Part shown: piece after piece, positions 10,579-44,164 of the stretch
Position numbering within the stretch: position 1 is the stretch's first letter
Layout of the letters: every line of letters starts with the position of its first letter
Source of the DNA: an uncultured Acidobacteriota bacterium
GTDB lineage: Bacteria > Acidobacteriota > UBA6911 > RPQK01 > JAPXNP01
DNA length: 64,000 nucleotides
Assembly (NCBI GenBank): GCA_963777605.1
Contig: CAVZRV010000028.1
Span: 177,412-241,411, forward strand
Direction: 5' to 3'
Notes under the pieces: model-generated
Databases searched by the model: none
Told to the model about the DNA's origin: nothing
Seen by the model: only the letters and a program-made list of their open reading frames with translations
Program-made: the position numbers and the translations under genes

Positions 10579-11517
10579 TCAATGGCGATAAGGCGGAACA
10601 TACTTCTGCAGGGACGAGATGAAAGGCCGAACGGTCGTATTCGTTCTCACTTTACCCCTGAGCAGGATGTCTTCCCCGGTCACCGGGCTGCCGTAGACCG
10701 CCTGGTTGGCGCTGTCATCCATCGTTATGCTGGCACCGGCCAGCGATACGCCTGCAAAAAGTCCCTTGCTGCGGGAGTAGGAGTAAATGGCAGAGCTGAG
10801 CGTGATGTCGGTTGCGCCACTGGCGGTTCTACCCACCGGTCCGGCTGCCACCGAGGCGTCTCCACCCAGGGTGAACTTTCCTTTGAGCAGCGGCTTCAGG
10901 CCGTCTTCATTGGTGAAGACCAGCACCAGATCGGTGGCTGAGCCTCCGATCTGAAAGCCCACACTTCCGCCGCCGATGGTGATAAAGGCGGGCGCTGACC
11001 AGTTGCCGGCTTCGGTCCGTCGGGCGATCAAGCCCTTGCCATATCGTCCACCCACGATGAACGCGCCCTTGACGACATGCGGGATAATGGCGATCGCGTG
11101 GGCTTTCTCGAGCAGATCTTCGGGGATCGCCTGGTCGGGAGCAGCCATGATTTCAGAGAGAACGCTTCCAGCTTTTGTGGCCCGATCGGCCTCGTCTTCA
11201 ACATTGGCCCGGGCAGGCTGGTCAACCCTGTCGGTGTAATAGCTTGCCTGCGGGTCCATTTTCACTCCCAGGGCTTCCTGGGTCTTCTGGTCGAGCATTC
11301 CGGTCGGCTCCAGGCTCTTGCTCTTTTGAAACTCCCGAATTGCAGATCCAGTCTGAGGTCCCATCACTCCGTCGACGGGCCCCGGGCTAAAGCCATTGTC
11401 CTTAAGGACCTGTTGAAGGTTCTGGATCGTTTGATCGGGACGGGCAGCCACAAGGGAGGCTGTCATCAGCGCCACGGTCATGAGAAACATGAAAAGCAAA
11501 GTGGATATCTTCTTCAT
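10579..11517 (-). CDS. Peptidoglycan-binding domain plus Ysc84/SYLF lipid-binding domain protein
   Basis: Signal peptide; LQQVL..GFSPGPVDGVMGPQT..AIREFQ; then KGAFIVGGRYGKG, GGSVGFQIGG, AAGPVGR and YSRSKGLFAG. Confidence 0.9.
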   Translation of the reverse strand: MKKISTLLFMFLMTVALMTASLVAARPDQTIQNLQQVLKDNGFSPGPVDGVMGPQTGSAIREFQKSKSLEPTGMLDQKTQEALGVKMDPQASYYTDRVDQPARANVEDEADRATKAGSVLSEIMAAPDQAIPEDLLEKAHAIAIIPHVVKGAFIVGGRYGKGLIARRTEAGNWSAPAFITIGGGSVGFQIGGSATDLVLVFTNEDGLKPLLKGKFTLGGDASVAAGPVGRTASGATDITLSSAIYSYSRSKGLFAGVSLAGASITMDDSANQAVYGSPVTGEDILLRGKVRTNTTVRPFISSLQKYVPPYRH

Positions 11518-11743
11518 TGTTATTCTCCTTGGGAGATTGGTGCTCCCTGAAATCTCACAGGTCTTTCTACACAAGAAGCTGATCGTTGCTCTGACTGTTG
11601 AGTCCCCAAACCCGGACAGTGAAGCAGAGCCCCGAGGATTATCGGGAAGACGATGAGCCTTCTGCCGATATCCGGCTCCAGTGAGATTGCCGACAGGTCG
11701 ATTACTGTCTTCTCCTTTTTACATCGCTGGCGAAGACGGTGTC

Positions 11744-11781: not shown

Positions 11782-11858
11782 GTGCCCTCGATGAGGAGGC
11801 CACCGCAAGCCGAGGGTCAGACGAAAAAGCGCGCTCCTCGTCTGTCCGATTGCCAACC

Positions 11859-12751
11859 TGAAACTTCATCGTGGAGGCTGCAATTTTCACCGCAAGGCGC
11901 GAAGGTCGCCCGGAATCATGAAGCCGTGGGTCGCGGCTGGAGCCTGGATACCCCGATTTCAGAACGCGAGTGTCACGAGCGCGGCTCCGGACGATGGTAA
12001 GTCACCAGAAGTGCTGCCGGAGGCCGGAACCGCGGGATGGAGTCAAAATCCAGGACTGGTAATGGATGAGAGTCAGGAGTAGCGCTCCCTTGACTCGGGG
12101 GCGCCTAATGGGTTCCCTCGCGTTCGGAACACTGGCCGTGTGCCAGGTCCGGTCCGCCATGCCCAGTTTCACTCTGAGAATGGTCCGGCGCCGCCGGGGG
12201 CCCCGCTGACTTAAAACTTCATTTGGATGAGTTGGAAATCCTGGAAGATTTGGACGCGTCTGGACGGGGATTGAGGCGATCGGTGGAGAGCCAGGGACGC
12301 GATTATCGGCTGAATCCTGGTTCCGGGTCCGGTGCCAGACGTGGATGAGTGATGATCACAGGATCGGCACCGGACTGGCCCCTGAAGGGGGCCTGTTTCC
12401 AGCCCAGGCATTTGCCTGGGTTTACGGTTCCCCCATCAAGAATCCAGCCCTGAAAGGGCGGCACAGCTCTCCGGACGTGAAGAATCGGCGCGACCTTACA
12501 GGCCGCAATCGAAGTGCCGGGACCACAGACCCAGGGCAAGCCCTGGGCTGAAACCAAGGCGCTCCAGCGCCAGGTCCAGTTTCACTCTCTGAATGATCCG
12601 GCGGCCGGGGGCCGGGCTGACCTGAAACTTCACCTGAAGCTTGGACCCTGGGTCCATTTGAAACGTGGAATGGCACGGACACAAAGCCGGGGGTAAGGCG
12701 AAGCCGCGCCCCCGGGTTCGCGGACCCAGTTTCACTCTCCGAATGACCCGG
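11859..12751 (-). mobile_element. Modular non-coding element, locus 1: three tandem units (11859-12188, 12212-12601, 12623-12751)
   Basis: On + each unit starts TRAAACTTCA and ends CCAGTTTCACTCTNNGAATGNYCCGG; similar GC-rich 21-23 nt linkers; homologous to 20607-21109 and 40675-41194; abuts the PBP stop codon. Confidence 0.75.
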
Positions 12752-15040
12752 TCACGGGCGCGGTGACGAGGTCGAACTCGCGGCCAACGTCGTGGGTCTG
12801 TCCGGCTCTGCCTCCGGCCGTGCCTGCGCTGCCAGGTATTCGTCGATCCCTTGCTCGATCTTGCGGGGGAACTTGGGAGCCGGTCCCACGAGCTGGTCGC
12901 GATAGACTCGGGACATGATTTCACGGAAGATCGGGAGCGCCGTGCGCCCACCGGTTTCTCTCGCGCCCAGCGTGCGGTTATCGTCGAATCCAATCCGGAC
13001 CGCCACGGTAATCCCCTCCGGTCCGTAAGTGGACCCCACGAACAGTGCGTCGCGGAAATCGCTCGTCGTTCCAGTCTTGCCCATCACCGGGACCGGGAAT
13101 CCACGCCCGTCAAGACTGTGTGCCGTTCCGTCCGGCAGTCGGACCACGCCTCGCAGCCCCTCCTGGATCAGGCTCAGGGCGGCGGAGTTGATTGGCTGAC
13201 CGGAAGGAGGGCCACTGTAAAGCAGCTCGCCAGAGGAGTCGCTCACGCTATCGATGACGTGGGGCTCGGCGAGGCACCCCGAAGCCATCGCGCGAAAGGC
13301 GTCCGCCAGCTCGAGCAAGCGCACTTCAGACGCGCCCAAAGCCGTTGCGATGTTGGGCTTGAGGGGGGTGCGTATTCCAAGCTCTTTCGCGGTCCTTAGC
13401 ACCGCTCGCAGGCCGATTTCGCGAGTGATCCATACCGCAACCGTGTTGCGGGACTCAGCCAGTGCCTGGCGGATCGGCATCGAACCTTTGAACTGATTAT
13501 CGTAGTTGCTGATCCACTTGCTATCCTGGTCGGCCCCCATGGGCACCTCGATGGGCTCGTCCGGCACGGTTGTCGTAAGGTCCAGTCCGCTCTCGAACGC
13601 GGCCAGGTAAACCAATGGTTTCAGTGCCGAGCCCGGCTGGCGCAGCGAGTCGGTGACACGGTTGTAGTCGGAATAGAGTGTATTCCTCGCTTCATAGAAC
13701 TGCCGTCCGCCGGCCTCGGCCAGGATTCCCGCATCGGCGTTACGCAACACCACCACAGATCCCTGGACCAACCCCTTGGACTTGGAATGCCGGTGCTCGT
13801 AGAGAGCGAGGCCGTTTTCGAGAGCTTCGTTCACGATCGTCTGGACCCGCCCGTCCAGCGTCGACCGGACCGAGATTCGACCCTGGATGAGGTCATCAAA
13901 CCCGAAACTGGATCCGCCGTGGAGTTTCAGCTCGCTGAGGACGCCGTTGATTGCAGCGGGGGCCTGGGTCTTGATCCGGCTGTGGGCCACCACGCGGATC
14001 GGCTCGGCCTGGCAGCGTTTCGCGAGTTCCCTGGTGATGTAGCCGTTGCGCACCATCAAATCCAGAATTTGGTTCCGGCGACGCAGGGGCCTCGGGTCAC
14101 CGGGAACCGGGGCATAGTCCTGGGGTGACTTCGAGATCCCCGCCAGCAGGGCAGCCTCTCCCGCGTCCTCCTGCGTATAGCTCGCGAGGGGTTTGCCAAA
14201 ATAGTAGTCGGAGGCGGCAGCGTAGCCATAGCGGCCGTTGCCGAGGTAAAAGAAGCTGGCCGAGCGGGCGAAAATCTCGCGCTTGGCTTGTTCCTGAGAT
14301 CCAAAGTGCCGGCGCATCTCTTCCTCCAGCCAGAGTGCAAGGCGCACCTCCTCCAGCTTGCGGAAGAGCTTGTTCGTGGCAGGTGCGCCGAGAAACAACG
14401 AGAAGAACCGTGGAGCCAGCCGTCTGCTGAAGAGGCTGGTGCCGGTCTCACGGCTTGTCAAGGCTTGCAGGAAGTAGCCGCGCACGAGTTGCTGCGTCAG
14501 CGTCGAGCCCCCTTGGGGAAGTCGCAGCCGGAACCCGGCGTCTCCCTTCCACCACCCGGTCACAGACCTCACCACCGTTTTCTCGATCACACGTGGCAGA
14601 GCCCGGTATTCCACGCCGGAATGAGAGAAGAAATTCTTGTCCTCGGCAGACAGGATCGCCTGACGCAGGATGACGGGCACGTCATCGTAAGAGACAACCT
14701 TGCGGTACTCCCCCGCCAGTTCGATCAGCACCTTGCCCTGCGCGTCATAGATTCTGCCGGTTGTAGGAGGCTCGAATCGGATGAAGGGCTCGAGGTCCGG
14801 GAGGGCGGTTCGATCGAAGTAGACGTAATGGATGAGTGCGCCCGGCAGGATGAGCAGGAGCAGCGCCAGGGAGGAGGCTGCAAGGAGCAGTACACGGCGC
14901 GACCAGGTGCGTGGCACGAGACGCACTATGAGGGCGCCCGCAGATCGAAGTCGGGAAGTGATTCGTGGCAACGCTCTGAAGGGGCCCTCCACGGGATCAT
15001 CCGCCTCGGGGGGGGCATGGGTCATGGGACTCGTGGGCAT
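12752..15040 (-). CDS. Class A penicillin-binding protein (transglycosylase/transpeptidase, PBP1A-like)
   Basis: TM anchor; AEDKNF, GGSTLTQQL and RKLEE; RQPGSALKP (SxxK), SRN and KTGT. Confidence 0.9.
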   Translation of the reverse strand: MPTSPMTHAPPEADDPVEGPFRALPRITSRLRSAGALIVRLVPRTWSRRVLLLAASSLALLLLILPGALIHYVYFDRTALPDLEPFIRFEPPTTGRIYDAQGKVLIELAGEYRKVVSYDDVPVILRQAILSAEDKNFFSHSGVEYRALPRVIEKTVVRSVTGWWKGDAGFRLRLPQGGSTLTQQLVRGYFLQALTSRETGTSLFSRRLAPRFFSLFLGAPATNKLFRKLEEVRLALWLEEEMRRHFGSQEQAKREIFARSASFFYLGNGRYGYAAASDYYFGKPLASYTQEDAGEAALLAGISKSPQDYAPVPGDPRPLRRRNQILDLMVRNGYITRELAKRCQAEPIRVVAHSRIKTQAPAAINGVLSELKLHGGSSFGFDDLIQGRISVRSTLDGRVQTIVNEALENGLALYEHRHSKSKGLVQGSVVVLRNADAGILAEAGGRQFYEARNTLYSDYNRVTDSLRQPGSALKPLVYLAAFESGLDLTTTVPDEPIEVPMGADQDSKWISNYDNQFKGSMPIRQALAESRNTVAVWITREIGLRAVLRTAKELGIRTPLKPNIATALGASEVRLLELADAFRAMASGCLAEPHVIDSVSDSSGELLYSGPPSGQPINSAALSLIQEGLRGVVRLPDGTAHSLDGRGFPVPVMGKTGTTSDFRDALFVGSTYGPEGITVAVRIGFDDNRTLGARETGGRTALPIFREIMSRVYRDQLVGPAPKFPRKIEQGIDEYLAAQARPEAEPDRPTTLAASSTSSPRP

Positions 15041-15079
15041 AATCGCGGTCTTTCGGAAGTGTGGTGCCCACTGCGGGGA

Positions 15080-15105
15080 GTGGAGCACGGTGAACCGTGC
15101 TCCAC
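15080..15105. terminator. 11-bp-stem hairpin between the OmpA-family gene and the PBP gene
   Basis: GTGGAGCACGG-TGAA-CCGTGCTCCAC. Confidence 0.45.
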
Positions 15106-15160
15106 CTCCATCAGTGCAACGGTCAGAACGTTTTGCAGACCAGAATGAGTGCACCGTTCA

Positions 15161-19942: not shown

Positions 19943-20599
19943 GTGGCGAATATGCGATGCCCTGTTGTCGATTGGTCAGTATCCCTTTCCGGCATCCCCG
20001 AGTTAAGAGTTCTCGAATACGGCGCGAGCCGCACGGTTTATTGGGAAGGAGACTCGGCGGATTCGGTGCTCTTTCTCCAGCGCGGCAAATTGAAGCTGTC
20101 AGTTACTTCGAAGCAGGGCAAAGAGGCCATTATTGCGATACTGGACGACGGTGACTTCTTTGGCGAGGGTTGCCTCATTGGTCAACCCCTGCGCATGGCG
20201 ACGGCGACCGCACTCACCGATTGCAGCCTGATCCGGCTGGAGAAGAGCCTGATGCAGCGGCTTCTCCACGAGAAGCACGAGATCTCTGAAATATTCGTGT
20301 CCCATCTGCTGTCCCGCAATATCCGGTATGAAGCGGACCTCGTTGATCAACTCTTCAACTCGAGCGAGAAGCGCCTGGCCCGGATCCTGTTATTGCTGTC
20401 CCATTTCGGAAAAGAGAGCAAGACTGAGCCCGTCCTTCCCAGGATCAGCCAGGAGGATCTGGCCGAAATGGTCGGCACGACCCGCTCGAGGGTCAGTCAT
20501 TTCATGAACAAGTTCAGGAAGTTGGGCTTTATCGACTATGGCGACGAAGGAGGCCTGTCGGTCAATAGCGGCCTCCTGGGCGTGGTTCTTCACGATTAG
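19943..20599 (+). CDS. Crp/Fnr family transcriptional regulator
   Basis: cNMP-like domain (GDFFGEGCL..R.ATA), EKRLAR, HTH ISQEDLAEMVGTTRSRVSHFMNKF; start may be ATG 19952. Confidence 0.92.
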   Translation: MANMRCPVVDWSVSLSGIPELRVLEYGASRTVYWEGDSADSVLFLQRGKLKLSVTSKQGKEAIIAILDDGDFFGEGCLIGQPLRMATATALTDCSLIRLEKSLMQRLLHEKHEISEIFVSHLLSRNIRYEADLVDQLFNSSEKRLARILLLLSHFGKESKTEPVLPRISQEDLAEMVGTTRSRVSHFMNKFRKLGFIDYGDEGGLSVNSGLLGVVLHD

Positions 20600-20606
20600 A
20601 GCAGCC
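20589..20606 (+). repeat. 18-bp direct repeat, left copy (contains the crp stop codon)
   Basis: TTCACGATTAGAGCAGCC, identical to 21106-21123. Confidence 0.85.
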
Positions 20607-21109
20607 CCCGCGCTCCCCGCGGATCATTCAGAGAGTGAAACTGGACTTGGCGCTGGCGCCTTGGTTTCAGCCCAGGGCTTGCCCTGGGTCTGTGGTCCGG
20701 CACCTCGATTGCGGCCTGTAAGGTCGCGCCCCGGATTCACCTCGCCCGAAGAGGTGTTCAGCCCTTTCAGGGCTGGATTCTTGATGGGTGGGGTGGGCCG
20801 TGAACCCAGGCAAATGCCTGGGCTATAAACAGGACCCTTCAGGGGCCGGCCCGACGCCGGACCATTCAGAGCGTGAAACTGCCCCTGGCGCCGATCCTGT
20901 GATCCTCACTCATCCACGTCTGGCACCGGACCAGGAACCAGGATCCAGCCGATAATCGCGTCCCTGGCTCGCCGCCCATTCGTCCATCGTCGTCGTGGAA
21001 CGCAGAATCTTTTCCCCGAAACGCAAAGATCTCTTGTTTTCAACAATAATACCCTTGGAGGCCTTTGCGACTTGGCGTTGCAATTCGAAGTCTCCAAATT
21101 GAACTTTCA
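20607..21109 (+). mobile_element. Modular non-coding element, locus 2
   Basis: Head GCGGATCATTCAGAGAGTGAAACTGG (20619-20644); second head at 20857-20881; tail AAATTGAACTTTCA (21096-21109); homologous to loci 1 and 3. Confidence 0.75.
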
Positions 21110-21123
21110 CGATTAGAGCAGCC
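21106..21123 (+). repeat. 18-bp direct repeat, right copy
   Basis: TTCACGATTAGAGCAGCC. Confidence 0.85.
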
Positions 21124-40599: not shown

Positions 40600-40674
40600 C
40601 CATCGTTTAGGCGTGGGTCAGGGGGAAGCGGACGAACGGCGACGAGCCCATCTATGTTCAGCTCAGCGCTGCCG

Positions 40675-41194
40675 CCGCGCCCTCCGCGGATCATCCAGAG
40701 AGTGAAACTGGCCCGGGCGCCTTGGTTTCAGCCCAGGCCTGCCCTCGGCTGGCGCCGGACCATTCAAAGAGGCCTGAAAGTCGCGGCGAATCATAACGCC
40801 GGAGAGCTGTGCCGCCCTATCAGGGCTGGATTCTTGATGGGTGGCCGGAATCCAGGCAAAGCCGGGCGGAAACAGGCCCCCTGGGGCCAATCCGGCGCCA
40901 AGCCGGCAATCATCACTCATCCACGTCTGGCACCTGACCAGGAACCAGGATCCAGCCGATAATCGCAGTCCCTGGCTCTCGCGGATCGCCTAATCCCAGC
41001 AGACCCGTCAAATCACAGGATTTCCAACTGATTGAAATGAAGTTTCAGTTCCGCCGGGCCCCGGGCGGCGCCGGACCGTTCCAGAGGCGAAATGGGTCCG
41101 CAACCCGGGGCGCGGCTTCGCCTTACCCCCGCTCTGTGACGTGCCATTCCACGTTTCAAATGGACCCAGGGTCCAAGCTTCAAATGAAGTTTCA
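40675..41194 (+). mobile_element. Modular non-coding element, locus 3: two tandem units (40686-41047, 41071-41194)
   Basis: Head GCGGATCATCCAGAGAGTGAAACTGG; tails AAATGAAGTTTCA at 41035-41047 and 41182-41194; same two units as locus 1 in swapped order; 11 nt from the P-ATPase stop. Confidence 0.75.
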
Positions 41195-41205
41195 GGTCAG
41201 CCTGC

Positions 41206-43830
41206 TCATTTGGGGGGCTCATCCTGGCGAATCTCGCGCTCCGCCTGATTCCAGTCCTGAATCGATCTTCCGTCCTCGCGGCCCCGCTGCTCGAACAGTT
41301 CATAAGCTCGCTCGGAGATCTGCGTTGTTGCATCGACAGGCTTTTTGACCGAGAGGGGTGCGGCCGTCGGATCGAAGACCCGATACGCGAGCAGCTTTAT
41401 ACGGTCATTCACGAGGAACCAGGCCAGAGCGTAGCCCCAAACGAACAATGCCCAGCCCCAGCCGAGGGGTGTCATGAACAGGCCATAAACTGCTATCAAC
41501 GTCGCCACGATTTGGGTGCCGAGCACCGCTACCCAGAGGATCCGCGCGGGTCGGATGGACCAGAACGGGCCGCGCGTACGGGTCAGGAAAATCGTCAGAT
41601 GCCCGGCCACGGACAGCTTCAGGTACATCAGCGTCTGGATGTGCACGCGGTCGAGGTGAAATACGCGCTCGCCAAGATAAAACAGGCCAAAGGCGGCGAC
41701 GACCCCGATGACGCCCAGCACCGAGGAAATCCCGAGCACCATGCGCATGTTCCAGGCCTCGGGCTCATCCTTGTAATGAACGTTGTCATAGGCGATGGAC
41801 AGGATGGCGCCGTCGTTGAGCAACGCCAACATCACGATCATCACTGCGGTCACCGGATAGAAGTTGAAGATCAGGATCGCCAGCGTCATGAAGAACAGCA
41901 CCCGCAAAGTCTCGGCGATGCGGTAGATCGCGTAGCTGTTCATTCGTTGGAAAATTCTCCGGCTTTCCTTAATAGCGTCAATAATTACCGACAGCCCGGG
42001 CGTCGTCAGCACGATGGAAGCCGCCGCACGCGCCGCATCCGTCGCGGCCGAAACGGCGATGCCGCAGTCGGCTTTCTTCAGCGCGGGGGCGTCGTTCACG
42101 CCGTCTCCCGTCATGCCGACGATGTGGTGGCGTTTTTGCAGGACATCGACAATGTGGAACTTGTGTTCGGGGAAGACCTGCGCGAAGCCGTCGGCCTTCT
42201 CGATAGACTCGGACACCGCTGTCGTCTCTTGCTTCTTTGAGTCGCCCAGGCTGCCGGCATCGAGGATATTCGTGCCCATGCCCAGCTTCTTGGCAGTTTC
42301 CAGTGCAATGGCCAGGGCATCGCCCGTAACCATCTTGATCTTCACGCCCATCTGGCGCGCGGTCGCGATGGTGGCCTTGGCATCTTCCCGTGGCGGATCG
42401 AACAGGGGCAACACGCCAACAAACTGCCACTGGCCCTCTCCCTCGTCCCGCGCCACGCCCAACGAACGAAAGCCGCGCGCGGCGAATTCGTTGACGGCTT
42501 TATCGACAGCCGGCTTCACCTGCCCGGCATTGGCCGACAACTCCAAAATGACCTGCGGCGCGCCCTTCGTCACCTTGAACTTCTTCCCGTCTTTGGTTTT
42601 GACGGTGGCCTCGGTCCGTTTATGCACCGGATCGAACGGCTGAAAATGGAGCACCTCATAGGCCTTTATCGATTCCTTGTCTTTCAGTCCGCCCAGGACA
42701 GCCAGATCGATGGTGTCGTTATTGTCCGCACGCGACGCCAGGGCACCATTGAGGATCACCTGATCGGCGGGGACATTGTTTAAGCTGAACGGGTCGCCCA
42801 GCGTCAGCTTGTTCTGGGTCAGGGTGCCGGTCTTGTCTGCGCACAACATGTCCACGCCCGCCAATTCTTCGATGGCAACCAACTTGCTCACGATCGCCTT
42901 TTTCCTGGCGAGCAGGCGTGCGCCGACCGCCATCGTTACCGACAGCACTGTGGGCATCGCCACGGGGATCGCGGCTACGGTAAGCACCAGGGCAAACTGC
43001 AAGGTGGTGAGGATCGGGTCACCCCGAAAGATCGCGACGGCAATGATCACCGCCACCAGGGCCACTGCAAGGACGATCAGATAATTGCCGATCTTCAACA
43101 CGGCCTTTTGAAAGTGGCTGACGGTGTGCGCATCCTGAACCAGTTGCGCCGTTTTGCCGAAGTAGGTGTTCCCACCCGTGGCGTAGACCAGTGCGCCGAT
43201 CTCACCTTGACGAATGATCGAGCCGGAAAAGACCGCCTCACCCGGCTTGCGCGTTACGGGTAATGACTCTCCTGTCAATGCGGACTGATCCACTTCCAGC
43301 GGGTCGCCCTCCAGCAATCGTGCATCGGCCGGCACGATGTCGCCCAGGCGCAGGCGAATGATGTCGCCCGGGACCAACTCGCGCGCCGCCGGGGTGATCC
43401 ACTTCCCATCACGTTTCACCCGGGCCTTGATCGCCAGCGAGGACTTCAACTCGGCGATCGCGTTGCCTGCCTGGTGTTCTTCCCAGAATCCGACCACGCC
43501 GTTGGCCAGAAGCAGAAGGAGGATGATGGCAAAGTCAGGCCAGTGCCGGGCCACCGCCGAAAGGATCACGGCCGCTTCGATCATCCACGGGATCGGACCC
43601 CAAAAATAGGTGAGGAATTTCAGGAAGGGACTGGTCTTCTTGTCTTCAATTTCGTTAGGGCCGTATTGGGTCAGCCTTTTCTGCGCCTCGGCTTGACTGA
43701 GGCCCTCCGGCGACGATCCCAATTTTGCCTGCAGTTCCGGCATGGGAAGGGATTTCAGCTCATCCTTCGCATTGGGTTTCGATTTCGTCCCCGATTCTGG
43801 AGATTTGGGCTCGGCGGCATGGGGTTTCAT
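41206..43830 (-). CDS. Plasma-membrane-type proton-efflux P-type ATPase (type IIIA) with a DUF2934-like C-terminal tail
   Basis: WGPIPWMIE, TGES, IPVAMP, DKTGT, KGAP, DPPR, TGDGVNDAPALK and ALLNDG; GGAGG RBS before ATG 43830. Confidence 0.93.
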   Translation of the reverse strand: MKPHAAEPKSPESGTKSKPNAKDELKSLPMPELQAKLGSSPEGLSQAEAQKRLTQYGPNEIEDKKTSPFLKFLTYFWGPIPWMIEAAVILSAVARHWPDFAIILLLLLANGVVGFWEEHQAGNAIAELKSSLAIKARVKRDGKWITPAARELVPGDIIRLRLGDIVPADARLLEGDPLEVDQSALTGESLPVTRKPGEAVFSGSIIRQGEIGALVYATGGNTYFGKTAQLVQDAHTVSHFQKAVLKIGNYLIVLAVALVAVIIAVAIFRGDPILTTLQFALVLTVAAIPVAMPTVLSVTMAVGARLLARKKAIVSKLVAIEELAGVDMLCADKTGTLTQNKLTLGDPFSLNNVPADQVILNGALASRADNNDTIDLAVLGGLKDKESIKAYEVLHFQPFDPVHKRTEATVKTKDGKKFKVTKGAPQVILELSANAGQVKPAVDKAVNEFAARGFRSLGVARDEGEGQWQFVGVLPLFDPPREDAKATIATARQMGVKIKMVTGDALAIALETAKKLGMGTNILDAGSLGDSKKQETTAVSESIEKADGFAQVFPEHKFHIVDVLQKRHHIVGMTGDGVNDAPALKKADCGIAVSAATDAARAAASIVLTTPGLSVIIDAIKESRRIFQRMNSYAIYRIAETLRVLFFMTLAILIFNFYPVTAVMIVMLALLNDGAILSIAYDNVHYKDEPEAWNMRMVLGISSVLGVIGVVAAFGLFYLGERVFHLDRVHIQTLMYLKLSVAGHLTIFLTRTRGPFWSIRPARILWVAVLGTQIVATLIAVYGLFMTPLGWGWALFVWGYALAWFLVNDRIKLLAYRVFDPTAAPLSVKKPVDATTQISERAYELFEQRGREDGRSIQDWNQAEREIRQDEPPK

Positions 43831-43849
43831 AATGGATATTCCTCCCGTC

Positions 43850-44164
43850 AATGACCATAACGGTGACGCTGCGCTCGATGGCGAAGGCAAAATCCCTGCT
43901 CATCAGAGTCAGCCAGAGAAGGAAGGTGATCGCACCACTACCGAGGGCAATGATGGTCAGCCACATCGCCGCGGTGTTCGCCAGATTCTGGGTCTTTGAT
44001 TTGCTTTGCTGAGCCTGCTTGACCAGGTCGATGACCTGCGACAGAAACGAATCCTTGCCAGTGCCTTTGACCTCGATGGTCAGCGAGCCTTCGCCGTTGA
44101 TGGAGCCGCCGATGACCTTCCCGCCGGTCTTCTTGGTGACCGGGGTTGATTCCCCGGTGAGCAA
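43850..44164 (-). pseudogene. Internal fragment of a heavy-metal P1B-type ATPase (CopB-like)
   Basis: LLTGESTPVTK..G.KVIGGSINGEGSL...SFLSQVIDLV..AQ.SKS...AIERSVTVMVI; breaks off just before the expected CPx motif. Confidence 0.8.

Follow-up and report, generated by a model that had tools for sequence, protein, structure and literature searches.

We analysed a 64,000-nt stretch of the genome of an uncultured Acidobacteriota bacterium (GenBank assembly GCA_963777605.1, contig CAVZRV010000028.1, positions 177,412 to 241,411), hereafter the window. On its minus strand, at 11854-12747, three units with unrelated interiors and common ends, named A, B, and C, stand head to tail. The units are very probably non-autonomous satellites of an IS110-family insertion sequence (IS), similar to MITEs (transposable elements of the miniature inverted-repeat type), which are mobilized in trans and form stacks by targeting their own right ends (REs). 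They are assigned to the IS110 family because the same ends enclose an IS110 gene on two other contigs of this genome, C24 and C8. An earlier model reading of the letters alone (the sequence-only reading) had proposed that the units form a non-autonomous family, are moved in trans, and insert beside each other; the shared IS ends support this proposal. That reading was wrong in regarding the family as unrecognizable: it is an IS110-family satellite, for which MITEPpu9 is a published case.

Common ends, partner insertion sequence, and genome-wide census

The array is intergenic; it follows the stop codon of a PBP1A gene and lies ahead of a gene with PG_binding_1 and Ysc84 domains. Read on the minus strand, the units start with CCGG(G/A/A)(T/T/C)CATTC..AGAGTGAAACTGG and finish with (G/A/G)TGAAGTTT(C/T/C)A (letters in brackets in the order A/B/C), and GC-rich linkers, TCAGCCCGGCCCCCGGCCG and GTCAGCGGGGCCCCCGGCGGCG, stand between them. 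A repeat search of the window recovered the common head in three copies, as well as the common tail. With at most one mismatch, the 13-mer head AGAGTGAAACTGG occurs 5 times in the window against 0.08 expected from shuffles; the 12-mer tail TGAAGTTTCAGG occurs 4 times against 0.19. A chance origin of the common ends is excluded. Each junction is an imperfect palindrome of ~52-54 nt, with AGTTTCA (12629-12623) opposite TGAAACT (12584-12578) between A and B, and AGTTTTA (12218-12212) opposite TGAAACT (12171-12165) between B and C. The sequence-only reading had described the three unrelated interiors with the same termini, the GC-rich linkers, and the palindromic junctions correctly. Its unit bounds, which gave lengths of 129, ~392, and ~332 nt, were misplaced; the linker is the left end (LE) of the following unit. 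Sequence comparison places the bounds from CCCCGCC.. just after ..GTCAG to the next ..RGTYAG (Table 1). LE (~45-48 nt) consists of CCCCGCCCCC, a 5-6-bp hairpin, GGAYCATTC, and AGAGTGAAACTGG; RE (~17 nt) consists of WKGAAGTTTCARGTY and the core AG.

The partner IS is 1651 bp long and is present in four copies, a tandem pair on C24 and a tandem pair on C8, and its LE and RE are those of units A, B, and C. A copy enclosing an IS110 gene is among the things that the sequence-only reading had suggested looking for. The open reading frame (ORF) of 458 aa matches DEDD_Tnp_IS110 (PF01548, 9.4e-20) and Transposase_20 (PF02371, 8.7e-11). A PF01548 search of the assembly (G000; 6.73 Mb, 53 contigs, 58.8% GC, 5.68% contamination) gave four matches only, all in the IS copies. 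The transposase is distantly related to that of IS621 (8wt6_A; phmmer E = 4.3e-5). The motifs GIDLG, MEATG, and KTDIKD are visible, and the catalytic serine was not assignable from the IS621 alignment. No IS110, Y1, or tyrosine-integrase-like match and no bridge RNA was found on the window's contig, in searches that did not extend to DDE transposases; to that extent the earlier statement that the window holds no transposase or integrase stands. The whole of C24 corresponds to C8:328060-340592, with flanks ~93% identical, IS copies 99.5% identical, and a different unit order. The pair represents either a strain variant co-assembled in the metagenome-assembled genome (MAG) or a diverged duplication.

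A profile search of the genome for LE gave 166 matches at E ≤ 0.1, 152 at ≤ 0.01, and 115 at ≤ 1e-5. An RE precedes the next LE in 91 of the 166, and the other 75 are truncated or have no detectable RE. For the interiors of the complete copies, 12 clusters were obtained (B, 33; E, 24; A, 10; C, 7; D, 6; IS, 4; the rest small or singletons), and there are at least eight unrelated interior families. Labelled by the interior that follows, the LEs count 49 for B, 48 for E, 22 for C, 19 for A, 7 for D, 4 for the IS, and 9 for others, with 8 unlabelled. They are distributed over 105 loci: 74 single, 19 double, 10 triple, one with 10 LEs, and one with 14. The long stacks on C24 and C8 contain the IS pairs. 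Orders vary among loci (A-B-C at 11854-12747, and elsewhere A-B-E, C-B-E, A-E-B, B-D-A, F-D-C, B-A, and E-A); the family is not the single fixed sequence without reshuffling that the sequence-only reading had set against its own proposal. Pairwise identities have medians of 0.89-0.91 (B, E, and A), 0.69 (C), 0.99 (D), and ~1.0 (IS). The maximum within B, E, and A is 0.987-0.998. Copies of B are 89-93% identical, copies of D 98-100%, and copies of the IS ~99.5-100%. Inverted repetition of the termini is limited to a 7-nt subterminal repeat (TGAAACT/AGTTTCA), and there is no regular target-site duplication beyond the core, an 18-nt repeat at 20589/21106 being the exception. A classical MITE of a DDE transposon was rejected on these two grounds, the subterminal 7-nt repeat and the lack of a fixed-length duplication.

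Variable units separated by imperfect palindromes also suggest an integron-like cassette array, that is, a cluster of attC sites lacking an integron integrase nearby (CALIN), with unusual attC sites. An attC site has the layout R''/L''..L'/R' and a core with the consensus GTTRRRY. An integrase-like gene does occur in the genome (C7:532822-533767; TIGR02249, 373.5 bits against a cut-off of 265), but it is the only match above the cut-off and lies on another contig, ~45-55 kb from the nearest unit. The junction ..AGTTTCAGGTCAGCC.. has GTTTCAG, which does not fit GTTRRRY; the sequence-only reading was right that the sites do not match attC, and the integron likeness it saw, in head-to-tail varied units with imperfect palindromes between them, is superficial. 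The units have no attC core, no adjacent IntI, and no conserved ORF as cargo, an IS110 gene bounded by these ends stands within the arrays, and the recombinase is of the RNA-guided DEDD/serine type, not a tyrosine recombinase. We give the integron explanation almost no credence. The integrase-like gene on C7 was matched in two pieces and may be frameshifted.

The junctions could instead be the mobile entity, with the interiors as mere spacers, as in repetitive extragenic palindromic (REP) sequences and bacterial interspersed mosaic elements (BIMEs, REPINs) moved by a Y1 transposase (REP-associated tyrosine transposase, RAYT). The units resemble these in being high-copy intergenic palindromic repeats, the ~52-54-nt imperfect palindromes at the junctions fit, and the genome has 9 Y1_Tnp matches. 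IS110 elements also often target such repeats, and a Planctomycetota relative of the IS lies in the loop of a GGTACGGAGCC..GGCTCCGTACC palindrome. In contrast, the interiors are themselves repeated families bounded by ends, isolated units have LE on one side and RE on the other rather than whole palindromes, and the ends equal those of the IS110 element. The palindrome here is made of the element's own two ends, not of a host REP. No Y1 gene was seen flanked by units among the places compared, the nearest of them being ~1.8 kb away. This explanation is therefore highly improbable.

Tandem small-RNA (sRNA) genes with common processing signals and no mobility were considered as well. Unit B folds better than 100 of 100 shuffles (z = -3.37), and the cargo of MITEPpu9 is an sRNA (PMC12288879). 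Units A and C, however, show no excess structure over shuffles (z = -1.77 and 0.14), and Rfam gave only sub-threshold, chance-level matches on the array (mir-4667, CRISPR-DR24, nhaA-II, and Acido-Lenti-1), none of them a known RNA family near threshold. The interiors of A, B, and C were not found by blastn in 30 relatives, among which there is no genome of the same genus, and the ~105 dispersed loci and an empty site also speak against immobile genes. Promoter and terminator scans, uninformative for this phylum, gave no sigma-70-like promoter, either where RE meets LE or elsewhere in the array. Immobile sRNA genes are a very improbable explanation.

Bridge RNA, guides, and conserved features of the left end

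Relatives of the transposase were found in a Bryobacterales MAG (58% identity, more than 50 copies) and a Planctomycetota MAG (51%). The 5' non-coding regions of the IS, of unit D, and of the Bryobacterales and Planctomycetota elements share one fold of 56 predicted pairs, 20 of which show compensatory changes. The 3' strand of loop 1 carries a same-sense copy of the left flank and core (AAGCCAG, AGGTTAG, GAGCCAG), and the 3' strand of loop 2 carries a same-sense copy of the element's own RE (ACACCAG, ACACTAG, AGGTCAG). By analogy with IS621, these correspond to the left target guide and the left donor guide, respectively. The donor guide equals the element's own RE in all five variants: AAGTCAG in the IS (4/4 copies), AGGTCAG in D (6/6), ACACCAG in Bryobacterales variant 1, ACACTAG in variant 2, and AGGTCAG in the Planctomycetota element. 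The target guide equals the left flank in 36 of 53 insertions of Bryobacterales variant 1 (AAGCCAG; the remaining flanks deviate at distal positions only), in 2 of 4 of variant 2 (AGGTTAG; one mismatch in the others), and in 18 of 18 of the Planctomycetota element (GAGCCAG). The Bryobacterales LE starts with TCGCGCCCCCGG.., a homologue of the linker, and its RE finishes with ..GTGTTTCACACCAG; the second variant has the flank AGGTTAG and an RE ending ..CACACTAG. The Planctomycetota element lies in its palindrome loop at ..GGAGCCAG/GCTCC.. (the slash marks the boundary) and has an RE ending ..GAGTTTCAGGTCAG.

The core dinucleotide is AG. A crossover inside GGATCATTC/AG fits the left edge of the A-B-C locus; it was rejected as the canonical site because ~50 independent Bryobacterales insertions carry the linker homologue on the left and never on the right. 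A crossover between GT and CAG was also set aside. The relatives place the crossover at or after AG, and the exact base is not fixed in G000.

The IS has the target guide AAAGUCAG, the donor guide GAAGUCAG, and an RE ending ..TTTCAAGTCAG (4/4 copies). Family D, of 417 bp, has no transposase and carries a complete bridge RNA with the same target guide, AAAGUCAG, and its own donor guide, AAGGUCAG, matched by an RE ending ..TTTCAGGTCAG (6/6). The donor guide of D is not the one in the IS; it suits the RE of D and of about half of the other satellites, and B, E, and A include both right-end variants, AAG and AGG. In the genome, a covariance model built for the bridge RNA gave 12 matches: four in the IS copies, six in D (five places on four contigs), and two weaker ones in the C8 stack. 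It gave none in A, B, C, or E, or in the window. The satellite families other than D would rely on RNA and protein from elsewhere. In another genus, L089 (G061:C21:787800-789300) shows the 3' end of an IS110 ORF and an RE, followed by an LE and a bridge RNA without a transposase gene; it may be a bridge-RNA-only unit.

Three features go beyond what the IS621 model explains. The LE hairpin always has 5-6 bp, and copies and lineages differ in its sequence but retain its pairing (CCGGCG.G.CGCCGG, CCGCG.CCCTC.CGCGG, CCGGCC.GGT.GGCCGG, CCGGGC.GGG.GCCCGG, and GCCCCG.GCG.CGGGGC). The motif behind the hairpin is repeated in the same sense on the 5' strand of loop 2 (L001:5229-5387; also L006, L054, L059, L089, and L091), and motif and repeat change together across five lineages, in four states (ATCATTC, ATGATTC, CCTTC, and CCAATC). 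The subterminal 7-nt inverted repeat co-varies too, as GAAACT/AGTTTC here and GAAACAC/GTGTTTC in the Bryobacterales element. The three features probably explain why ~48 nt of LE are conserved in all satellites, and, judged from these patterns, they may be further recognition elements. Pairing of LE TCATT with RE AATGA was considered and dropped; it co-varies between G000 and G029 but not in three other lineages.

Targets, stacking, and the history of the array

At 38 canonical leftmost junctions, which have no recognizable RE before them, the left flank reads yyCA-RGTYAG (T 38/38, A 37/38, G 36/38, and C at -2 in 31/38), and this is the sequence of the element's own RE. The target guide equals the donor guide at 7 of 8 positions. 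Head-to-tail stacking is attributed to these two facts: since the RE itself is a target and the target guide is nearly equal to the donor guide, an RE would receive a further unit. An LE follows directly behind 56 of 120 exact REs. The guides of the Bryobacterales element differ from each other at two positions, and there an LE stands directly behind 8 of 145 REs, counted as occurrences in loci that may overlap. Guide similarity may explain this difference in stacking between the few lineages compared. At 64 terminal REs, conservation fades past AGGTY and composition is near background from +7; little seems to depend on the target's right half.

In the mechanism that we propose, the units keep only the cis-acting ends of the IS, without transposase or bridge RNA. 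The DEDD/serine transposase would be supplied in trans by the four IS copies on C24 and C8, and the bridge RNA by the IS copies or by the transposase-less D units. By analogy with IS621 and ISPpu9, a unit would be copied or excised as a circle, whose RE-AG-LE junction would be the donor site. One loop of the bridge RNA would pair with the donor and the other with the target, ..CA-RGTYAG, and recombination would occur at or next to AG. The RE of each inserted unit would be a good target half-site, and new units would land directly behind old ones. The A-B-C stack would have entered the space that separates the PBP1A gene from its downstream neighbour, at a site of the GGTCAG type, and its left edge was probably trimmed later by a deletion of ~55 nt between CCGG microhomologies.

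Metagenomes provided an empty site. Five runs contained small shares (0.05-0.07) of the stretch, and one X4 contig (sediment, depth 3, flanks ~92% alike) has, between 11853 and 12748, 33 other letters in place of exactly the 894 nt of A-B-C; insertion-specific sequence starts at 12747. On the minus strand, this contig reads ..GTGACCGG, then the 33 nt ending ..CCACCGGTCA (..CCGGTCA), then GCAATCGG. Its GGTCAG sits where the RE of unit C meets the flank (..AGTTTCAGGTTGG/CAATCGG), which supports the view that the array is an insertion at a GGTCAG site. A deletion of ~55 nt between native ..GACCGG and LE ..GCCGG would yield the observed left edge, ..GTGACCGG/GTCATTC... Alternatively, the left edge may derive from a non-canonical half-match event of the kind described in two 2026 preprints. 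Loose ends in X3 and X4 pass from the junction to 3'-terminal sequence of a transposase ORF of the IS type; therefore, related elements occur in soil and sediment samples.

Several points weigh against satellites mobilized by the present IS. The empty site is a single low-depth contig from an organism only ~92% similar, and the left edge of the array is non-canonical: unit A is without the first ~20 nt of LE, and the 33 nt of the X4 contig are also absent. Target position 0 is G in 21 of the 38 leftmost junctions, a mismatch to the A of both known target guides, and the flank from -2 to -5 resembles the RE and not the guide. The core AG is weak at the 64 terminal REs (A 33/64, G 41/64). The guides lie on the opposite loop strands from those of IS621, and no right target guide (RTG) or right donor guide (RDG) consistent by eye was found in the five bridge-RNA variants. 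No circle, transcript, or transposition event was seen; circle and tandem junctions are identical in sequence. The assembly of one relative, G057 (same order, 94% complete), contains 68 LE motif matches but neither an IS110 gene nor a bridge RNA of this type. Lastly, most copies of B, E, A, and C are old, to judge from their medians, and the IS copies are near-identical. Because the unit copies are diverged and the IS copies are not, the present IS may be a late arrival and not the spreader of the units.

One alternative is that the units are fossils, spread by an older, lost or changed relative of the IS and no longer mobile, with which the present IS shares ancestral ends. Divergence of ~10% within B, E, and A and ~31% within C, compared with ≤ 0.5% for the IS copies, fits this explanation, as do the 75 of 166 LEs that are truncated or have no detectable RE and the many units of G057 without a detected partner. 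However, identity reaches 98.7-99.8% between some copies of B, E, and A and is 98-100% among the D units, which lie at four loci, and the C24 and C8 versions of one locus, with flanks 93% identical, have different unit orders and 99.5%-identical IS copies. We consider fossil units unlikely.

A second alternative concerns this stack alone: a single composite circle, excised from another stack, could have brought in A, B, and C together, in place of three insertions in succession. ISPpu9 circles hold a transposase module and an sRNA module via the outer ends (PMC12288879). The A-B pair occurs at four loci and B-E at six, and on C29 the A-B pair agrees with the window at 92%, junction included. 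Nevertheless, no other A-B-C triple was found among the 31 multi-unit loci, and recurring pairs are expected by chance, B, E, and A being the commonest families. Such a circle is doubtful.

Relatives, precedents, and further copies in the window

The LE motif GGAYCRTTC-N5-7-GAAAC has at least one match in 38 of 76 genomes of the order. Counts are 110 in G000, 111 in G029, 23-68 in six genomes of one genus, and moderate in a few others; the reversed pattern, used as a control, gave 0-2. Small units bearing LE and RE occur in G029, where most of the 15 bridge-RNA matches adjoin one of 22 IS110 genes. Since G057 has the motifs but neither gene nor RNA, units persist there without a detectable partner; its satellites are either orphaned or their partner is unassembled.

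The closest precedent is MITEPpu9, the ssr9 module of ISPpu9 in Pseudomonas putida KT2440 (PMC12288879). It is a transposase-less module with near-copies of the IS ends (A'/B' boxes), present in eight copies, which contains an sRNA gene and targets REP sequences. It stands directly behind the IS, alone, or sometimes in tandem, and its mobilization in trans has been proposed. ISPpu9 recombines at AG, has a short palindrome near its left end (GCCC-N4-GGGC), and forms circles, which have been shown (PMC12288879). The units described here share with it the transposase-less modules, the copies of IS ends, the AG core, the left-end palindrome, and the tandem and dispersed arrangement. They differ in having at least eight families, ~150-166 LEs, and stacks of up to 14 units where MITEPpu9 is one module type in eight copies; in one family, D, with a whole bridge RNA; and in a target that resembles their own RE, not a host REP. 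The circles of ISPpu9 have been shown, whereas the units here are known from sequence alone.

For IS621, PMC11208160 and PMC11208158 describe a 5' non-coding RNA with two internal loops, same-sense guides for the left target plus core and the left donor plus core, a CT core, and a 22-bp donor that suffices. The two-loop 5' RNA, same-sense guides, dinucleotide core, and distantly related transposase recur here. Unlike in IS621, the core here is AG and not CT, the same-sense guides are on the 3' loop strands, and a motif behind the hairpin, ~22-30 nt into LE, is matched by loop 2 on its 5' strand; the cis ends conserved here also far exceed the 22-bp donor in length. Tandem non-coding repeat units and tandem IS110 modules at gene-containing loci have been described by Hu et al. 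(bioRxiv 10.64898/2026.08.14.744561), as have insertion into occupied loci and half-matches to the bridge RNA. Their loci were filtered for an IS110 gene, and a term search of the preprint found no MITEs and no dispersed satellites lacking the gene. The arrays on C24 and C8, which contain IS-IS pairs, agree with the picture of Hu et al., with the difference that near-identical guides here leave the full left half-site at the right junction.

Our literature search found no bridge-RNA-only or multi-family IS110 satellites; most subscription journals, supplements, and ISfinder lay outside it. Three things, none of them met in that search, are new here: how many and how varied the satellite families are, with their scattered stacks; a satellite that carries only the bridge RNA and has an RE variant to match; and a simple reason for stacking. 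A wider model is possible, and we advance it tentatively: an IS110 recombinase may sustain a community of at least eight satellite families with ends of ~48 and ~17 nt, in which D would be a mobile bridge-RNA gene, guide and enzyme would spread separately, stacks would form by self-targeting, and an extra loop-2 contact would extend the IS621 model.

Bridge recombinases are under development as programmable genome-writing tools, and the satellites would show which cis sequences an IS110 enzyme needs and that RNA and DNA partners can serve it in trans. They amount to a natural experiment, in which unrelated cargos have the same ~48-nt LE and ~17-nt RE, and two bridge-RNA variants have matched RE variants. 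Tandem stacking is predicted by one simple rule, the near-equality of target and donor guides. IS110 elements can spawn high-copy satellites that shape intergenic regions, and the LE motif is abundant in several genera of the order (23-111 per genome in eight genomes). For annotation, these satellites explain cassette-like repeats that could be mistaken for integron remnants, REPs, or sRNA arrays.

Table 1. Units, junctions, and neighbouring genes in the window (a slash marks the crossover region or boundary).
Feature	Position	Strand	Remarks
Unit A	12617-12747	-	131 nt; LE truncated, begins GTCATTCGGAGAGTGAAACTGG right after PBP1A stop codon and CCGG; RE ...GGTGAAGTTTCAGGTCAG
Unit B	12206-12616	-	411 nt; full LE CCCGGCCCCCGGCCGCCGGATCATTCAGAGAGTGAAACTGG; RE ...AAATGAAGTTTTAAGTCAG; hairpin-rich
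Unit C	11854-12205	-	352 nt; full LE CGGGGCCCCCGGCGGCGCCGGACCATTCTCAGAGTGAAACTGG; RE ...GATGAAGTTTCAGGTTGG; flank resumes at 11853
A/B junction palindrome	12578-12629	-	RE AGTTTCA, crossover region GGTCAG/CC, LE hairpin CCGGCC.GCCGG, ATCATTC motif, TGAAACT
B/C junction palindrome	12165-12218	-	Layout as A/B: AGTTTTA ... CCGGCGGCGCCGG ... TGAAACT
Upstream flank, class A penicillin-binding protein gene (Transgly + Transpeptidase)	12752-15154	-	Native 3' end (..TSSPRP, stop) abuts unit A
Downstream flank, PG_binding_1 + Ysc84 gene	10579-11574	-	
Second locus, rearranged B-type copy	20605-21121	+	Internal LE fragment near 20853-20884; foreign 3' part; begins after stop codon of Crp-like gene
Third locus, unit B variant	40667-41053	+	Left flank TGTTCAGCTCAG
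Third locus, unit A	41054-41200	+	Canonical RE ...AAATGAAGTTTCAGGTCAG; 5 nt from stop codon of P-type ATPase gene
P-type ATPase gene	41206-43890	-	

The interiors of the array are unrelated to one another, as the sequence-only reading stated, but they are not unique, since A and B recur at two further loci in the window (Table 1). The third locus has the order B-A. The second carries an exact 18-nt direct repeat, TTCACGATTAGAGCAGCC, at 20589-20606 and 21106-21123, which includes the stop codon of the Crp-like gene, and its RE is followed by CGATTAGAGCAG in place of RGTCAG. Neither this direct repeat nor this RE context would be expected of an IS110 insertion.

The native 3' end of the PBP1A gene (12752-12775, ..GTCACCGCGCCCGTGA; in the family-level relative G014, L083:1630-1653, TCACCCCGCCCATGA) resembles the first bases of LE, GTCAGCCCCGCCCCCGG. 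Although LE-like, this stretch is taken as native because G014 retains the same C-terminus, ..TSSPRP followed by the stop. The likeness could be due to chance or to an old insertion trace turned coding.

When the array was compared by blastn with the 30 relatives, the only matches were junction-sized pieces in G029 and a 30-nt piece in G023, a genome of the same order and another family. This piece, at 12442-12471 inside unit B, occurs at least 11 times in G023 at 93-97% identity without the rest of B, and may be a separate short repeat family.

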